A stretch of DNA of 64,000 nucleotides from a virus, in the UHGV virus genome UHGV-0038496. One strand, written 5' to 3'. Both the position numbers and the translations under genes were made by a program. The notes under the pieces are model-generated. The model saw nothing but the letters and a program-made list of their open reading frames with translations. It had not been told where the DNA came from and searched no databases. This document shows, in pieces, positions 20,980 to 31,548 of the stretch (the first letter of the stretch is position 1; every line of letters begins with the position of its first letter).

Positions 20980-22092
20980 TTAGTTAGTAGGACTTGCAAA
21001 CAGGTTAATATCTTTCCAATTTTCCCATTCAAATCTTGCATCCAGCATTTCTTCGAACTGAGCAGCGTCAAACTCGATTGTAATTTTACCCTCACCAACT
21101 TCCAGAGGAATTGGAGGAATTTCGAAGGATGGTAACGGATCCAAAGGTGTACTTGGAGTTGGATTAGCTCTGTAGGTAATCGGGTTAAGCATACGGTAAT
21201 CCAGGCCAAGGAAAGATGAAATGCCGTTAACACCATCGACAAGCCACTGCGGATGTTTGGTCACGTCAGTTTCCTGGTGGTAGTTTTGCATCCAATCATC
21301 CAACATACCAGCACCTTCGTACCCCATGTAGCCCAGAGCTAATGGTCCTTTCCATTTCCACAGTCCACCAAGTAACCGTGCAAACAATCCTTTCTTAGCC
21401 ATGGCTGCTGCACCACCCGCAGCTGCACCACCTGCGGCGGCACCACCGAGAGCACCTGCAACACCTCCGGCAGCTTTAATCATACCCAGGGTTGCGGCAA
21501 CAGCTTTGACGATTCTCAGCAATTTCCATACGGCGTTAACAACAACTAAGATGGAGAAAGCATAGCCTACCCATTTAGCTTTGCTGAATGTTTCATCAAC
21601 AGTGTCACTTGTATCTTTGACTTCTTTTTTCAGCAGACCAAAGTGGTCTTTGACTTGCAACCACCAGATACGGATACTGACAATCGTGTTGTTCAATTCA
21701 CCAACAATGTCGTTCAGACCCTGGATAAATCCAGATACAAACTCACCAGCCTGCATGATCATTGGGGTGAATGTTTCTCCTGTGCGGATCAGGGTGTAAT
21801 AAAACTCGGTGAGTTCATCTGACCATGTGGTGAACAGTTTTTGTTTAGTCAATTCGATGAAAGTTTTCAAACGGTTTTCAGCCAGAACGTTAGATTTCTG
21901 CATACGTTCATAACCAGCAGCTGACGCTTCGTTCATGTACTTAGCAACGTATTTCATCATTTTGGCTGTTTTGACCTGGCCTTTCTGCATCATGTCCATG
22001 AATTGTTCCATAGACAGCTCAGACAGGTTGAAAGCCTCTTTTGTTGCTTTAATGAACGGCTCGTAAGCACCTGGCATTGCTTCAGCTACCAA
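20980..22092 (-). CDS. Tail tape measure protein, 3' exon
   Basis: 370 aa; Gly/Ala-rich hydrophobic segment AAGGVAGALGGAAAGGAAAGGAAA; frame opens only a few codons upstream (stop TAG), continuing the 22907..24142 reading frame after an intron. Confidence 0.7.
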   Translation of the reverse strand: MVAEAMPGAYEPFIKATKEAFNLSELSMEQFMDMMQKGQVKTAKMMKYVAKYMNEASAAGYERMQKSNVLAENRLKTFIELTKQKLFTTWSDELTEFYYTLIRTGETFTPMIMQAGEFVSGFIQGLNDIVGELNNTIVSIRIWWLQVKDHFGLLKKEVKDTSDTVDETFSKAKWVGYAFSILVVVNAVWKLLRIVKAVAATLGMIKAAGGVAGALGGAAAGGAAAGGAAAMAKKGLFARLLGGLWKWKGPLALGYMGYEGAGMLDDWMQNYHQETDVTKHPQWLVDGVNGISSFLGLDYRMLNPITYRANPTPSTPLDPLPSFEIPPIPLEVGEGKITIEFDAAQFEEMLDARFEWENWKDINLFASPTN

Positions 22093-22906
22093 TGTCCAGA
22101 CAGTTCGCTACGCTGTCCCGGTGTGCTAAGACACCCGCCACACATTTCTGTGTGGAGCAGACTATATCTTCTCTGGATAACCAGAGCCAACCATTTCAGA
22201 GGCGCTTGCCTCTTACACCGCTACACTCATCACGGTTAGTCGTTGAGCACATAACTTATAAATCTTTCAGCAGTTTAGACCATGCTTTCTTAGTCTTGAT
22301 TCGAACAATTGCTGATCTGCAAGCACCAAATTCTTCCATCAAATCTGTTGTATTCTCAAACCGCCTGTTATAAATTTCGATAACCTCTTCTGCTGTGAGC
22401 TTATGATTGGCATTTGACTCACCAGAGGCATCATTCAGGCCATTTGCAAAAGCATGTTTCTGATTGCCAGATCGAGTAACATACTCCAGATTATCTTTAT
22501 GGTTGTTTGCTTTATTACCGTCCTTATGGTTAACTTCCATCCCAGGTTGTGGAGGTTCACCAAGGAAAGTAAGGGCAACTATTCTGTGAACAAGATACAA
22601 CACACATTTGCCGTTTACCCGAAAGTAAACGCGTTTGTAACCATTGTGTATTGTCTGCTCAGTCAACTGCTTCCGTGTGTTTCTTCTTGTAGAGAATATT
22701 GCACCGTCCTCTCTACAGAAGTACCCATCGTGACCAGGAACTGGTCGGATTTCTAAGTTACTTCGCTGCGGATTATCCATTGTTACATCCTCCAAACTTT
22801 TTACCATACCCCGAGTAGTTACTTCGGGCCATAAACATGTTACCACATTTATTTGGTATTTGGAAGGCTTTAGGAGCTTCCCGCAATTAGGTTGGTTTTA
22901 TAACAG
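22093..22906 (-). mobile_element. Group I intron in tape measure gene (approximate boundaries)
   Basis: About 810 nt between the two TMP exons; contains HNH ORF; 3' part carries AACGACTA...GATATAGTCTG...GGCGGGTGTCTTAGCACACC core shared with the terminase and nrdD introns. Confidence 0.6.
22256..22780 (-). CDS. Intron-encoded HNH homing endonuclease
   Basis: Start at MDNPQRS with GGAGG Shine-Dalgarno; motifs RIVALTFLG and VNHKDGNKANNHKDNLE. Confidence 0.8.
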   Translation of the reverse strand: MDNPQRSNLEIRPVPGHDGYFCREDGAIFSTRRNTRKQLTEQTIHNGYKRVYFRVNGKCVLYLVHRIVALTFLGEPPQPGMEVNHKDGNKANNHKDNLEYVTRSGNQKHAFANGLNDASGESNANHKLTAEEVIEIYNRRFENTTDLMEEFGACRSAIVRIKTKKAWSKLLKDL

Positions 22907-24142
22907 CTAGTATGTCAACTGTTGTTTTAGTTCCTCAGACATTACCTGTCCTTTACCAAGCATTTGCTGTATCGCCATAATACCACGCTGATATTTTACT
23001 TCATCAGCACCATATGACGCAGCATATTGCGAATAAGCAGAGAACAGATCACGGACTTCCTGCCCTGTCATTTGGTTTTTGGCGTTTACTGCCATTTGAG
23101 AGTAGCCTTGCAGACCTGATTTCAGGTCGAAGCCTAATCTCATAGCTTCACCTTGTACGAATGCAACTTCCGAGTTAGCTTTCGTAGGATCACCCATAAC
23201 GTTGGTAAGAGCAGCACTCGCACCTTCCATCATGTGACCGGATTTGTTAACACTGACAATTGCAGAGAATGCGGTGTACGCTTTAGTCAAATCCATGACT
23301 GTTGTTCTTAATTTATTAAAAGCGGTGCTCAGAGTCATGGTTCCAGCAGCAGCATTAGCAAACCCCTTCTGCATTGCAGCGATCTGGGCGTTGAAAGTTG
23401 ACTTACCTATCAACCCTTTTGCATATTGCTGTTCAACCTGACGGTAGCCACCTAACATATCCCTAAAATTAGCCCCATAACGAGCTGTCAGACGCGTTGA
23501 CATGTTGGTAAGGTGTGTTAGCCTATCCATACCCACATTATTGCGTTTGGGCGTTCCTGAGCTGCCATTTTGCTTGTGCCATCTGTTCATTGCAGCAGTC
23601 TGGGCACGAACAAGTGCTGGGTTGGAAGCTACACCACCCATGTTGGGGTTACCTGGGATATATCTGAAGGTATTTGCTCTGGACAGAGCACGGGGTGAGA
23701 CTGGTTTGTTGGAGAAGTAGGAACTACCTAAGCCACCACTTTTCTTAGCCAGTTTGGATTGTTCCTGATAGAATTTACGCATTCTCACCAATTCAGGATC
23801 TTTGGCAGTCATCTGACCGACAACCTGTTTCCTTCTGGCGTTCTCACGTTTTTCTATCGCAGATCGTACAGCAGCTTCACGTTTAGCCTGGGATACAGCT
23901 TCCTGATGCATACGGCGTTGCTGTTGCAACTGTTTATTCTGTACCCTCTGAACAATCTGACCAGTCTTCTCCATCGATGCTTGCCAGGCTTTCAGAGGAT
24001 TCCCCTTTCCCAAAGAATCGCCCAGCTTTGTAAACTCCCTGCCTAATCCTTTAATTCTTTCAATAGCTTTTTTATAGCTATTGTTATCGATCTCAAATGT
24101 AATTCGGTTTGTGGTTGTGGCAACCACTTTGTTACCAGCCAT
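22907..24142 (-). CDS. Tail tape measure protein, 5' exon
   Basis: 411 aa; TMP-like composition (Ala/Gln-rich, GYSQMAVNA core); ORF ends where intron core begins. Confidence 0.7.
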   Translation of the reverse strand: MAGNKVVATTTNRITFEIDNNSYKKAIERIKGLGREFTKLGDSLGKGNPLKAWQASMEKTGQIVQRVQNKQLQQQRRMHQEAVSQAKREAAVRSAIEKRENARRKQVVGQMTAKDPELVRMRKFYQEQSKLAKKSGGLGSSYFSNKPVSPRALSRANTFRYIPGNPNMGGVASNPALVRAQTAAMNRWHKQNGSSGTPKRNNVGMDRLTHLTNMSTRLTARYGANFRDMLGGYRQVEQQYAKGLIGKSTFNAQIAAMQKGFANAAAGTMTLSTAFNKLRTTVMDLTKAYTAFSAIVSVNKSGHMMEGASAALTNVMGDPTKANSEVAFVQGEAMRLGFDLKSGLQGYSQMAVNAKNQMTGQEVRDLFSAYSQYAASYGADEVKYQRGIMAIQQMLGKGQVMSEELKQQLTY

Positions 24143-24457: not shown

Positions 24458-24922
24458 TTATTCCTGAGTTTCCTGGTCCAGACTGTTGATCTGATGCGCC
24501 ATTTGCAATCCCTGCAACATCGCCATCAGGCCGTCTAAACCTTCTTGCGTGAAAAAAGATCCGTAGTTAACCTCCAGCACTTTACCAGCCAGTTTGAGCA
24601 TTGCAAACAGGTTGCCAGCGAAGAGTGCATCTATGTCTACTTTATCCACGCCATCAACGACAACATCTGCGAACAGGATATCGAACAGTTCGTCAATCGA
24701 TTTATCGTCAAGTTGTTCGAATAAGTACACCAGTGCGGTTGGTAACACTTCTGCGAGGTTTTTACCACCGTTCAACAATTCACCACCAATGGCTCCCATC
24801 GGCACTGCAATAATCCTGCCAATTTTAGGAAGGTTATGCATTGCCTGGCGTGGTCCCCAGTGATTTATAATGAAGTTGTGTCCGACTAAATCTATTTCTG
24901 TAGTAGGTCTGAAGTTTGGCAT
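24458..24922 (-). CDS. Putative tail assembly chaperone
   Basis: 154 aa acidic protein in the canonical position between tail tube and tape measure. Confidence 0.4.
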   Translation of the reverse strand: MPNFRPTTEIDLVGHNFIINHWGPRQAMHNLPKIGRIIAVPMGAIGGELLNGGKNLAEVLPTALVYLFEQLDDKSIDELFDILFADVVVDGVDKVDIDALFAGNLFAMLKLAGKVLEVNYGSFFTQEGLDGLMAMLQGLQMAHQINSLDQETQE

Positions 24923-25024
24923 TTCTCGTTACCCTTAAAGTTAGTTGTCATGCGTTATCGCATAGATTTATTATAGCATTGTACTCACTTTTTGTCAATG
25001 CAAACAGAAAGCCTCCGAAGAGGC

Positions 25025-26563
25025 TTATAACCACTTAGCTCTCCATACCCATTTAATCTTACCACTATCCCACAACCGGATAGCCCCAACCAAATCTTCT
25101 ATCTCCCGCTCTGTACGAGGATCAATAGACTTATCTGGGTTGAAGTCTACATCAGATCTGCCAATCTCCTCCAGACGTTTAGGAATCAATCGACGTTGCC
25201 AGTGTGGTTTCGGACGCAAACCATTAGCAGGGTGGAATACTCTGTAGTCAGGTTTGCCATACGTTTCAGCAACAAATCCCAACACTTCATAAACCCCACC
25301 AGCGAAGTAGTCATTCATACTGAATGAACTAACCTCTTCTGGATTATTCTCCCTGATAAACGTTTTAAACAGTCTAGATGCCCCACCACGAACAGAACAG
25401 CTTGATGCAAATCTTGATAACTCCCATGTTGCCTTAGTCGTACCGTTAGCTCTGGCCTGACCTCTCGTAGTTTTACCGTAGCCGAAGCTCATGATTGCTA
25501 CAATTTCACCTTCTTTCGTTTTCAGAGCCAGATTGATAGGGTTAGGAGAATGGCCCTGCGGGTGGTAAGCGTCGTAAAACTCTTTGCACTCTATTGATTT
25601 TAGATGCACAACTTCACACTCCCTGGCATTTACTTTACGCTCACCATTACACCCCAAAGCATGAGCCAGCAACTGGCTGAACACTTTCTGGTTGTTATCC
25701 CAATCATAGTCCGTGATCTGGATCAGGCGAATACCTTTCTCTTTACAGGCTAACCACTTGTTGTAATGGTAGTCTTTAGACTTATGATTATCACCATGCC
25801 AGAAGACACCGTTAACTTCAATCGCCACACGTTTTGATGGGACAAAGATATCTAACTCTTTGCCATCATCCAAGATAGTGCGGTTAGACTGCTCCGCGTC
25901 TGGACAGATAGATTTTACAAAGTCAAAGACAGATCCTTCCACTTTAGAAGTCAATTTTGCACAATGCCTGCACCCATGACCTCTGTGAATGTGTTCTTTC
26001 ACAGGCTGTTGGAACTCTGATCCACATTTTGTGCATTCAATATTGAGAATGCCTTTCTTCCTTTCATCATAAAACATACTTTTGTAAACGTATTTATCTT
26101 TGTGGACCTCTTTAGCTTGTTCCACAACTTCTTCAAAAGAGTTTCTGCTTTTTCTACCACGAGTCATGTTAGCACAACGAGGGCAGCCCTGTCCTCTCAA
26201 ATGTTTGCTAGGTTTTTGTGAGAACACGCCGTGGTCAGGGCAAATAATGTTCACATTTGTCACTCTATCTTTATACACAACCTCAGAGTAATCGTAACGA
26301 TCACCATGTTTTTCTTTGGCCTTTTCGATAAATTCTTCCCTGTTTCCACGTTTACGCTCAAGGTAACATTCTTTGCACCCCTCCCCTTTTCTGTGAGCAT
26401 TCGCTTCTACCGAAAACACGCCATGTTTTTTGCAAATAATGTTAACTTTTTCTCTGCTACCTTTGTACTCAGTTTGACTGTAATCATACATTTCTTCAAA
26501 CTCAGGGTTTTCTTTGAAGACGGCTGTTAGCCATTCTTCTTTTGTATAACCTTTTCCAGCCAT
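25025..26563 (-). CDS. Free-standing endonuclease: three zinc-ribbon repeats plus Vsr/DUF559-like PD-(D/E)xK domain
   Basis: Start at MAGKGY with AGGAG Shine-Dalgarno; three approx 60-aa repeats YxYS..Y....I(I/E)C..HG.F......H..G.GC..C; then ELDIFVPSKRVAIEVNGVFWHG restriction-endonuclease-like motif. Confidence 0.55.
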   Translation of the reverse strand: MAGKGYTKEEWLTAVFKENPEFEEMYDYSQTEYKGSREKVNIICKKHGVFSVEANAHRKGEGCKECYLERKRGNREEFIEKAKEKHGDRYDYSEVVYKDRVTNVNIICPDHGVFSQKPSKHLRGQGCPRCANMTRGRKSRNSFEEVVEQAKEVHKDKYVYKSMFYDERKKGILNIECTKCGSEFQQPVKEHIHRGHGCRHCAKLTSKVEGSVFDFVKSICPDAEQSNRTILDDGKELDIFVPSKRVAIEVNGVFWHGDNHKSKDYHYNKWLACKEKGIRLIQITDYDWDNNQKVFSQLLAHALGCNGERKVNARECEVVHLKSIECKEFYDAYHPQGHSPNPINLALKTKEGEIVAIMSFGYGKTTRGQARANGTTKATWELSRFASSCSVRGGASRLFKTFIRENNPEEVSSFSMNDYFAGGVYEVLGFVAETYGKPDYRVFHPANGLRPKPHWQRRLIPKRLEEIGRSDVDFNPDKSIDPRTEREIEDLVGAIRLWDSGKIKWVWRAKWL

Positions 26564-26628
26564 CGAAAAACTCCTAGTAGTTTTAAACACAGGGGAACTA
26601 TACCACAAAACATTAGCTTTTGTCAAAC

Positions 26629-26662
26629 CCTATAAACAAGAAAGGCCACCCGAAGGTGGCCT
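26629..26662 (-). terminator. Rho-independent terminator after tail tube gene (minus strand)
   Basis: AGGCCACC-TTCG-GGTGGCCT hairpin followed by T-rich tract on minus strand. Confidence 0.5.
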
Positions 26663-26668
26663 GTAACA

Positions 26669-27142
26669 TTAAATGATACCAGTTAAACCTGCAAGTCCCA
26701 TCATTGCAGATTCAATGTTATCTTTGTTCAACCAGCAATCCAGTACGCCGATTTCCCAGTCCAGTTGTGCAACTTCTGTACCGTAGGTCAGGTCAGGTTG
26801 CTTCTGGATCCAACCGATTGTGGAAATACCAGGACCCTGGCTACCTTCCAGCAGAACAGGGAAGAATACAAGCCCTGTGATAGATGCTTGTTTCTGCCAG
26901 TCTGACAGGTAGGCGTTCCATGCTGCTGTGTTCTGGAGAGATACAGTCATTACACCAGATTGGTTACGGGATAATGCTGCACTCATTTCACCATCCACGC
27001 CTACATGCGGGTAGATGTTATCTTCGTTACGAGAGACAACGATTTTGGTGTCTGCCGCAAAACCTGATACACGCTGACCCATCAAATAAAGTTTTACTTT
27101 TTTCGGGTCATATGCATAGGGTGTTAAAATATCTGTGACCAT
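26669..27142 (-). CDS. Tail tube protein (putative)
   Basis: 157 aa directly downstream of sheath-sized gene; terminator after it. Confidence 0.55.
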   Translation of the reverse strand: MVTDILTPYAYDPKKVKLYLMGQRVSGFAADTKIVVSRNEDNIYPHVGVDGEMSAALSRNQSGVMTVSLQNTAAWNAYLSDWQKQASITGLVFFPVLLEGSQGPGISTIGWIQKQPDLTYGTEVAQLDWEIGVLDCWLNKDNIESAMMGLAGLTGII

Positions 27143-30855: not shown

Positions 30856-31548
30856 TTAGCAATGTAGCCATTCAAGAGGCTCAGTAAGCTCCATTTTGTT
30901 ATGTTTTTCAAGATTCATTGCTGCTGGGATAAGCTGCCAGTTCATATGCCAGTGTAAACCACCTTTAGACAGTGGAATCATATGGTCTACGTGCCACTCT
31001 ATCCCAGTTTCTTCCTTACGGATTTCTGCAAGCTCAAACATCTCTTGCAGTACAAAATCATCAAAATCTGAATACCATTTTGGTATAGCGTGCCGTTTTA
31101 TCTCATTTCTGCGAATAGTTGCATTAAGAAACAAATGTTTATTTCGACGATAAGATGCTGCCCTGCGAGCTTTCATCTTCTCTGGGTTAGCCTTCTCCCT
31201 ACGCCTCCTGTTCTCACAGATTCTATCCTTGTTTTTAGCATAGCGTTGTTTATCGTACTCTCTTGCCTTTTCAACATCAGCAGCACGTTTCGCTTTGACC
31301 TTCTCTTTTATCTCTTCACCTTTCCTGGCATAATACTTTTTAGCACGTTGCTTGTGCTCTTCCAACAACTTCTCCCTATTATCAGCATAGTTCTGTCTGT
31401 CTTTCTCGCGGCTGCATTCCAAACATGCTCCGTTAACTGTTAATCTTTCACAAATGTGACCATGTTTGCAAGGCTTACCAGTAAAATAGCGCACCATTCC
31501 ACGTTCTTTAGCAATACTTCTTTGAATGATGTGTAAGTAAAGTTCCAT
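30856..31548 (-). CDS. Free-standing HNH endonuclease with N-terminal zinc ribbon
   Basis: 230 aa; CKHGH...CLEC zinc ribbon, Lys/Arg-rich coiled coil, C-terminal WHVDHMIPLSKGGLHWHMNWQLIPAAMNLEKHN HNH motif. Confidence 0.7.
   Translation of the reverse strand: MELYLHIIQRSIAKERGMVRYFTGKPCKHGHICERLTVNGACLECSREKDRQNYADNREKLLEEHKQRAKKYYARKGEEIKEKVKAKRAADVEKAREYDKQRYAKNKDRICENRRRREKANPEKMKARRAASYRRNKHLFLNATIRRNEIKRHAIPKWYSDFDDFVLQEMFELAEIRKEETGIEWHVDHMIPLSKGGLHWHMNWQLIPAAMNLEKHNKMELTEPLEWLHC

Follow-up and report, generated by a model that had tools for sequence, protein, structure and literature searches.

We analyzed a stretch of 64,000 nucleotides (hereafter the window) of the virus genome UHGV-0038496, which derives from an rV5-like (Vequintavirinae-type) myovirus of ~140 kb with ~75% DNA identity to cultured members. 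Here we describe a gene at positions 25025..26563 (minus strand, as are its domains, its signals, and its two flanking genes) that lies between the tail tube gene and the tail assembly chaperone gene. The open reading frame (ORF) runs from the ATG at 26563 to the stop codon at 25025-25027 and encodes a protein of 512 amino acids in which we count three domains: a zinc-finger array, a Vsr-like nuclease, and a Mom-like GNAT domain (mean pLDDT of the AlphaFold2 (AF2) model, 88.9). Overall, we conclude that this is probably a free-standing homing endonuclease gene of the Hef-like/EDxHD family, carried as a self-contained cassette. An initial annotation, made from the sequence alone, had described the first two domains, both of which stand, and had missed the third. 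It had also considered the architecture to be a less common one; instead, the architecture is common and already annotated, and the window protein adds to the known Hef-like family.

The nuclease domain (residues ~206-305; 25649..25948) was assigned by profile comparison, Foldseek, and invariant columns. It includes the motif ELDIFVPSKRVAIEVNGVFWH at residues 236-256, and its conserved residues in a set of 48 homologues are E209, D238, E249, H256, D258, and K269; E209, D238, and H256 are invariant at a mean identity of 40%. When the profile of the 48 homologues was compared with the PDB, a single match was obtained, namely 3r3p, the catalytic domain of I-Bth0305I (E = 8.8e-8). The same entry was the top PDB match when an AF2 model of residues 200-312 (pLDDT 84.3) was submitted to Foldseek (E = 1.9e-5, TM 0.64-0.72), with Escherichia coli Vsr (1vsr) ranking ninth. 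The construct crystallized as 3r3p carries the substitutions D196A and H213A (PMC3239194), and, because these positions coincide exactly with D238 and H256 of the window protein, they provide an independent check of the alignment. The column of I-Bth0305I D222, the last residue of the composite E, D, H, D catalytic motif of EDxHD enzymes, is occupied by H266 in the window protein; Asp-258, which is close by and at least 90% conserved, may be a substitute for the aspartate of that column. We note that the window protein scores below the family thresholds of both Pfam Vsr (16.1 bits versus 27) and TIGR00632 (16.5 versus 97.85) and that DUF559 was matched by just 3 of the 48 homologues, at E of about 0.04. 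We therefore rejected classification as a Vsr repair enzyme or a DUF559 member, although the fold superfamily is the same. Thus, of the Vsr/DUF559-type nuclease proposed initially, the Vsr-like part is borne out by sequence and by fold, the DUF559 part is not, and the nearest known enzyme is I-Bth0305I. “Hef type” endonucleases were placed within the EDxHD family by Taylor et al. 2011 (PMC3239194).

The DNA-binding region is located N-terminal to the nuclease, in the same domain order as in I-Bth0305I but with a different type of module. As had been proposed, it consists of three tandem repeats, at residues 7-70 (module 1, 26354..26545), 73-134 (module 2, 26162..26347), and 141-205 (module 3, 25949..26143). 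Repeats 2 and 3 are 39% and 23% identical to repeat 1, respectively, and 13 invariant columns are common to all three. The pattern HG.F......H..G.GC..C, given initially for each repeat, is exact in repeats 1 and 2, whereas repeat 3 has a variant of it (CG.EF......H...GHGC..C); the Cys/His clusters are indeed present, with four ligands per repeat rather than one fewer. The metal ligands are Cys-44, His-47, Cys-63, and Cys-66 in repeat 1, Cys-108, His-111, Cys-127, and Cys-130 in repeat 2, and Cys-177, Cys-180, Cys-198, and Cys-201 in repeat 3, and they are invariant or nearly so in the 48 homologues. In the AF2 model, ligands 1 and 2 lie in a β-hairpin knuckle and ligands 3 and 4 at the N terminus of a helix; because of this arrangement, we regard the modules as treble clefs and not as the classical zinc ribbons of the initial annotation. 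The Pfam family DUF4379 (“probable treble clef zinc finger”), which scored 37.3 bits against a cut-off of 24.5 with its best stretch in module 3, favors the same assignment. DUF723 scored 15.5 in the window protein, below its cut-off of 20.9, and was matched by 43 of the 48 homologues; CapR was matched by 15. Modules of the DUF723, DUF4379, and CapR types have been described as DNA-binding domains that occur as repeats in phage homing endonucleases and can be exchanged (PMC10448857). By analogy, the three-module array would presumably read an extended target close to the junction of the tube and chaperone genes.

The C-terminal domain (residues ~310-512; 25028..25636) makes up 40% of the protein, is as conserved as the remainder, and was assigned from Pfam matches in homologues, Foldseek, and hhalign. 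When the whole model was submitted to Foldseek, chains A and B of phage Mu Mom (8bv8) were the top two PDB matches (E = 1.1e-5, probability 1.00), and ordinary GNAT acetyltransferases ranked after them. The Pfam family Mom (PF25680) was matched by 17 of the 48 homologues at E ≤ 0.1 (best 1.3e-8), and the window protein gave no match to it at E ≤ 1. With hhalign, the profile of the domain matched a profile of 33 Mom proteins with 93% probability (E = 2.8e-7), and the family alignment matched the single Mu Mom sequence with just 3.5% probability. In the profile alignment, the Mom residues His-58, Arg-111, Ser-124, and Tyr-159 are kept as His-334, Arg-384, Ser-396, and Tyr-425, all of which are invariant or at least 90% conserved among the homologues. 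The invariant residues of the domain include Arg-314, His-334, Gln-336, Gly-337, Arg-384, Gly-393, and Gly-394 and, further, Ser-413, Tyr-425, Tyr-440, Lys-452, Glu-485, Arg-496, and Asp-499. The A-D149-E-R151-C-G motif of Mom corresponds to S-M416-N-D418-Y-F in the window protein, and Mom Tyr-59 aligns with Pro-335. Mu Mom is a tRNA-dependent adenine-modifying GNAT enzyme in which Arg-111, Ser-124, and Arg-151 were reported to be essential and D149A to be strongly impaired (PMC13219725, PMC7261163). Judging from the alignment, the domain retains the residues assigned in Mom to cofactor binding and adenine recognition; because the essential Asp-149/Arg-151 motif and Tyr-59 are replaced, we call it Mom-like and do not file it as a member of the Mom family.

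The domain is constrained and clearly functional, and we consider as candidate roles a modification of DNA for self-protection, the recognition of a flipped adenine, and dimerization; Mom is a dimer. We think it rather unlikely that the domain is an active DNA-base acyl- or aminoacyl-transferase that acts via the zinc-finger array of the nuclease and marks the carrier genome at or near its own target. If it were, Hef-like proteins would be homing endonucleases with built-in, modification-based self-immunity, each a selfish restriction-modification unit in one polypeptide that acquires a new specificity through the exchange of finger modules, and the alleles described below would be a natural series for studying such reprogramming.

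We next consider the position of the gene. The upstream flank is the gene of the tail tube protein (157 amino acids, 26669..27142), which is 89-90% identical to the virion structural protein adjoining the sheath in rV5 and FFH2 and which, in relatives, matches PF11681 (Phage_Tube_PhiTE). The downstream flank is the gene of the tail assembly chaperone (154 amino acids, 24458..24922; PHROG 3840, 3.1e-55), which, in relatives, matches PF21822. These two genes are adjacent in FFH2 and rV5. Comparison with 225 matching Vequintavirinae-type records, of which 60 are listed, revealed that the endonuclease gene is absent from the junction in more than 200 related phages: the span from chaperone to tube gene is 2892 bp in the window and 1316-1317 bp in the listed records except JEP1. 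The view that a free-standing endonuclease gene interrupts the tube-chaperone order thus agrees with the synteny, divergent alleles being found elsewhere.

Phage JEP1 differs from rV5 by a clean insertion of 1645 bp that replaces 6 bp directly after GGTTTTGACA, the same point as in the window, between flanks 96-97% identical to rV5. The JEP1 protein (540 amino acids) has the same three-part architecture and is 34% identical to the window protein. The insertion polymorphism is therefore site-exact in two backbones that differ by ~25% in DNA.

Several expression signals surround and belong to the gene. A terminator-like, GC-rich hairpin, AGGCCACCTTCGGGTGGCCT, with a T-rich tail (26643..26662) stands between the tube stop codon and the endonuclease gene, as had been predicted; it is also present in rV5, the site of which is empty. 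It is followed by a σ70-like promoter of the endonuclease gene (TTGACA-18-TATAGT with a TG, 11 of 12 matches; 26597..26626) and by a Shine-Dalgarno sequence, AGGAG, at 26571..26575, 7 nt 5′ of the ATG. A second terminator-like hairpin (25009..25026) overlaps the stop codon. The Shine-Dalgarno sequence and the upstream terminator had been noticed in the initial annotation, and the gene's own promoter and the second terminator had been overlooked. Downstream lies the promoter of the tail assembly chaperone operon (TTGACA-17-TATAAT, 12 of 12 matches; 24970..24998), which is equivalent to rV5 P51.

When the window was aligned by blastn with two close relatives that carry another allele at the site (L008 and L011), homology ended at 26620, just past TTGACA, and resumed at 25002, just before the chaperone-operon promoter. 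These breaks delimit a variable cassette of 1617 bp (25003..26619) that is replaced as a block in close relatives with other alleles. The −35 box of the endonuclease promoter belongs to the conserved backbone and the −10 box to the cassette, and the empty site of rV5 contains the same GGTTTTGACA. Because homology stops right after TTGACA, the −35 box was already there for the cassette to use, and the −10 box, the ribosome-binding site, the ORF, and the terminator come with the cassette. The insertion point is ~40 nt downstream of the tube-gene terminator, after the conserved TTGACA and before the chaperone-operon promoter, so that the cassette sits between two TTGACA boxes. We rejected duplication of the −35 box by the insertion, as the rV5 empty site already has both boxes, 34 nt apart.

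To place the allele of the window, we fetched from IMG/VR and metagenomes the close clade, defined by a tube protein at least 94% identical to that of the window. Because the tube protein and not the Hef-like protein was the query, this sample is not biased toward occupied sites. A Hef-like gene was present at the site in all eight close relatives (L008-L011 and L034-L037), and more distant relatives were all empty. The genes at the site are 34-93% identical within backbones that are 90-97% identical. Allele A is found in the window, L004, L009, and L010, with 90-93% identity among its members. Allele A′ (L005-L007) differs from the window protein mainly in one part: the zinc-finger array is 43% identical, the nuclease 86%, and the Mom-like domain 97%. 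At the DNA level, the homology of A′ to the window breaks exactly at the borders of the array, at 26596 and 25942, defining a sub-block (25943..26595; breaks versus L005) exchanged alone between the two alleles. Allele B is present in L011 and L035 with three fingers, in L008 with four, and also in L037; the B proteins share 35-37% identity with A and 62-65% with the JEP1 protein. Further, L036 carries a chimera with four fingers, two of B type and two others, joined to an A-like core, and in L034 the fingers are missing altogether, a helical N terminus of ~58 amino acids being joined directly to an A-like nuclease.

Among the A alleles, the ratio of nonsynonymous to synonymous substitution rates (dN/dS) was 0.03-0.13 in all three domains (dS 0.4-0.7), with 0.05-0.13 in the nuclease and 0.03-0.10 in the Mom-like domain; the sheath, tube, and chaperone genes gave 0.06-0.14. 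This strong purifying selection on all domains indicates that the gene, including its Mom-like domain, is kept functional.

The neighborhood of the gene is itself mosaic. The protein of the chaperone gene (24458-24922) is 97% identical to that of L005 and 88-90% identical to those of L004 and L008-L011, whereas the zinc-finger array of the window is of the L009/L010 type and not of the L005 type; this places recombination breakpoints at the borders of the endonuclease gene. We also note additional small ORFs at the tube-chaperone hot spot, one of 112 amino acids after the Hef gene in L004 (7642-7980) and an acidic one of 109 amino acids before the Hef-B gene in L008 (5577-5906), neither of which has a PHROG match.

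If the gene is a homing endonuclease gene, it could act as follows. When the phage shares a cell with a relative whose site is empty or holds another allele, the protein would be made from its own promoter, and its three treble-clef modules would bind an extended stretch of target DNA close to the junction of the tube and chaperone genes. The Vsr-like nuclease, with Asp-238 as putative metal ligand and His-256 as putative general base, would then cut the target, probably as a dimer and with a double-strand break, on the model of I-Bth0305I. Recombinational repair from the cassette-bearing genome would copy the cassette into the cut genome. I-Bth0305I cuts as a dimer, giving a double-strand break (PMC3239194).

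Several observations weigh against homing. By analogy with characterized enzymes we infer cleavage, the target sequence, and homing itself. No empty-site genome was found in the close clade (L008-L011 and L034-L037), and, because all eight loci are occupied, the target of allele A is not readable from a pair of empty and filled sites. No co-conversion tract was seen beside the JEP1 insertion, where mismatches to rV5 are distributed evenly. A typical homing endonuclease can do without a GNAT domain, which leaves a part of the mechanism unexplained. The fixation of the gene in the close clade and its strong purifying selection are also consistent with a benefit to the phage, e.g. through the exclusion of competitors; such a benefit is compatible with homing. 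Finally, likeness to Hef of phage U5, the one Hef that has been studied experimentally and which has been described as an endonuclease cleaving nrdB, is suggested by Taylor et al. and by depositor annotations. The original study of U5 Hef is said to be that of Sandegren et al. 2005.

The Mom-like domain and the fixation of the gene bring in a second explanation, which we judge to be unlikely: that the protein is a single-chain weapon resembling a restriction-modification system, in which the Mom-like domain would acylate the phage's own adenines and the nuclease would degrade unmodified host or competitor DNA. This is how Iyer et al. interpreted Mom-REase fusions, and it and homing are not mutually exclusive. 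Iyer et al. (PMC7824862) cite PA5oct for jumbo-phage Mom domains fused to restriction-fold nucleases, and a “putative homing endonuclease” of PA5oct is a strong structural match to our whole model (E = 3.5e-31 over 376 columns). Because of this match, the Hef-like and the Mom-REase literatures describe the same proteins. The counterparts of Mom His-58, Arg-111, Ser-124, and Tyr-159 that are kept, the dN/dS of 0.03-0.10 in the Mom-like domain, and the presence of the gene throughout the close clade would all suit such a weapon. Yet the invariant ADERCG motif, with the essential Asp-149 and Arg-151, is replaced by SMNDxF (Met-416 and Asp-418 in the window protein), and the window protein falls below the Pfam Mom threshold. 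Further, the three-module array, the site-exact polymorphism, and the replacement of alleles point to a rare-cutting, locus-linked enzyme, and, with an array that varies freely next to conserved domains, cutting and protection would no longer share one specificity, unless the same fingers also guide the Mom-like domain on DNA.

The location of the cassette, flanked by the tube terminator and the 12/12 chaperone-operon promoter, could also suggest a domesticated relative of an endonuclease that is now mainly a DNA-binding regulator of the chaperone/tape-measure operon, for which CapR of PLE satellites and autorepression by I-TevI are precedents. Fingers of the CapR type are a repressor module derived from homing endonucleases (PMC10448857), and none of the close relatives sampled lacks the gene, which is under purifying selection. 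We nevertheless find this very improbable, as the catalytic residues of the nuclease are invariant in the 48 homologues with a dN/dS of 0.05-0.13 in that domain, and as the array is the most variable part of the protein, being swapped, expanded, or absent, whereas a regulator of a fixed promoter should conserve it. Moreover, more than 200 relatives (60 listed of the 225 records) express the same operon without the gene.

There is practically no chance that the gene encodes a conserved tail-module protein with a structural or assembly role, a reading for which nothing but its position within the tail gene block speaks: it is absent here from rV5, FFH2, and more than 200 others (60 listed of 225) as well as from all more distant relatives, its alleles are 34-93% identical in backbones 90-97% identical, and each of the three domains has the fold of a nucleic-acid enzyme or of a DNA-binding module. 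The synteny rules this out, and the structural protein conserved at this position in all relatives, which had been named as the finding that would speak against an endonuclease, was not what the comparison revealed. We therefore retain a homing endonuclease gene as the probable explanation.

The window protein belongs to a large family. It matched PHROG 559 (4.9e-103) and PHROG 3339 (1.9e-70), both over the full length and both made up of full-length homologues. A search of metagenome proteins returned 2495 proteins at E ≤ 1e-5, and a tblastn search of a phage collection matched 941 records, with 80% of the length or more covered in 138. No protein in that collection is more than 41-42% identical to the window protein. 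Full-length homologues, with the Mom-like domain included, are annotated as “homing endonuclease” or “Hef-like homing endonuclease” in GenBank; those annotated as Hef-like come from Campylobacter, Klebsiella, Salmonella, Dickeya, and Xanthomonas phages, and a single Campylobacter phage genome can hold as many as 11 copies. In the 64-kb window, tblastn with the protein detected only the gene itself and chance-level matches, i.e. no paralogues.

We note that PHROG 559 is labeled “HNH endonuclease” and that its members, including the window protein, are nevertheless of the Vsr-like EDxHD type with no HNH motif. An HNH endonuclease was rejected, as scans of Pfam and NCBIfam revealed no HNH family, and P559 was given only the VSR signature in PMC11878797, making the HNH label a misnomer. 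A component of a known defense system was likewise rejected, PADLOC having yielded a generic “HEase” match alone.

Other mobile elements are present in the window. The tape-measure gene (20980-22092 and 22907-24142, minus strand) is interrupted by an insert of 829 nt (22089-22917) that carries an HNH endonuclease ORF (22256-22846; PHROG 59). An Rfam group I intron model spans 22138-22927 end to end with 24.8 bits (E = 6.6e-4), short of the gathering score. A join of 22918 to 22088 restores exactly the EELKQQLAEAMPGAY of the uninterrupted tape-measure gene of L005; a U precedes the 5′ splice site, and G is the last base of the intron. L009-L011 and L035 have the insert, and L004-L006, L008, and L036 do not, in a survey in which L007, L034, and L037 end before the site. 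Further, an ORF of 230 amino acids (30856-31548, minus strand) with a Cys-rich N terminus matches PHROG 1035 (“endonuclease VII” type) and separates two head/neck genes that adjoin each other in FFH2, making it the third nuclease-type insertion within ~10 kb of the structural module. Finally, some part of positions 26600-51000 is matched at 95-99% identity by 8 phage records and at 90-95% by 45, against a backbone of ~75%; the high-identity part could be a recently exchanged segment, e.g. a mobile gene or tRNA genes.

These results bear on how such proteins are labeled and read. They add a further Hef-like gene to a group of phages in which such elements abound. They correct “HNH” for PHROG 559 and “zinc ribbon + DUF559” for the window protein, and they bring together two literatures that read the same proteins differently, one as homing endonucleases and the other as restriction-modification units. 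The biochemistry of Mom was reportedly solved only in 2026. In our literature search, nothing linking Hef-like enzymes to Mom domains was found beyond a general remark in PMC7824862, and no paper was found that tested either the homing or the restriction-modification interpretation for the three-domain proteins. Further, the locus offers near-identical backbones in which arrays are exchanged, expanded, chimeric, or missing next to a catalytic core that is 86-97% identical; the alleles A, A′, and B, the chimera, and the finger-less form are thus useful for learning how finger modules set target specificity. The locus also bears on the idea that nuclease genes mark recombination boundaries in phages.

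Comparison with known systems places the window protein at the meeting point of several. Mu Mom (8bv8) is the best solved structural match to its C-terminal domain, and the counterparts of His-58, Arg-111, Ser-124, and Tyr-159 are kept. In contrast, Mom is a stand-alone enzyme, whereas the window domain belongs to a nuclease and has changes in the ADERCG motif and at Tyr-59. The Mom-REase fusions of jumbo phages (Iyer et al. 2021, PMC7824862) share the combination of a restriction-fold nuclease with a domain of the Mom family, but were interpreted as a modification-restriction pair and not as a homing element, and their carriers are jumbo phages, unlike the ~140-kb rV5-like phage with its locus-specific insertion polymorphism. 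The T5orf172 and GIY-YIG homing endonucleases (Barth et al. 2023, PMC10448857) have exchangeable zinc-finger repeats of the CapR, DUF723, and DUF4379 types and genes at boundaries of genetic exchange, as here, but differ in belonging to another nuclease class and in having no Mom-like domain. I-Bth0305I, the EDxHD prototype, resembles the window protein in its Vsr-like fold, its aligned catalytic Asp and His, its N-terminal DNA-binding region, and its nature as a phage-borne selfish element. It differs in being intron-encoded, in recA, in binding DNA through two NUMOD/helix-turn-helix motifs where the window protein has zinc fingers, and in carrying the nuclease at its C-terminal end without a GNAT domain. 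The Hef-like endonucleases of T4-related, ViI-like, Campylobacter, and Klebsiella phages (PMC2988022, PMC3296691) are likewise free-standing, lie between conserved phage genes, and are variably present among relatives. The Hef-like gene of LIMEstone1 adjoins the tail tube gene, as in the window, and, as has been reported for hef and mobE, different endonuclease genes replace each other at one locus.

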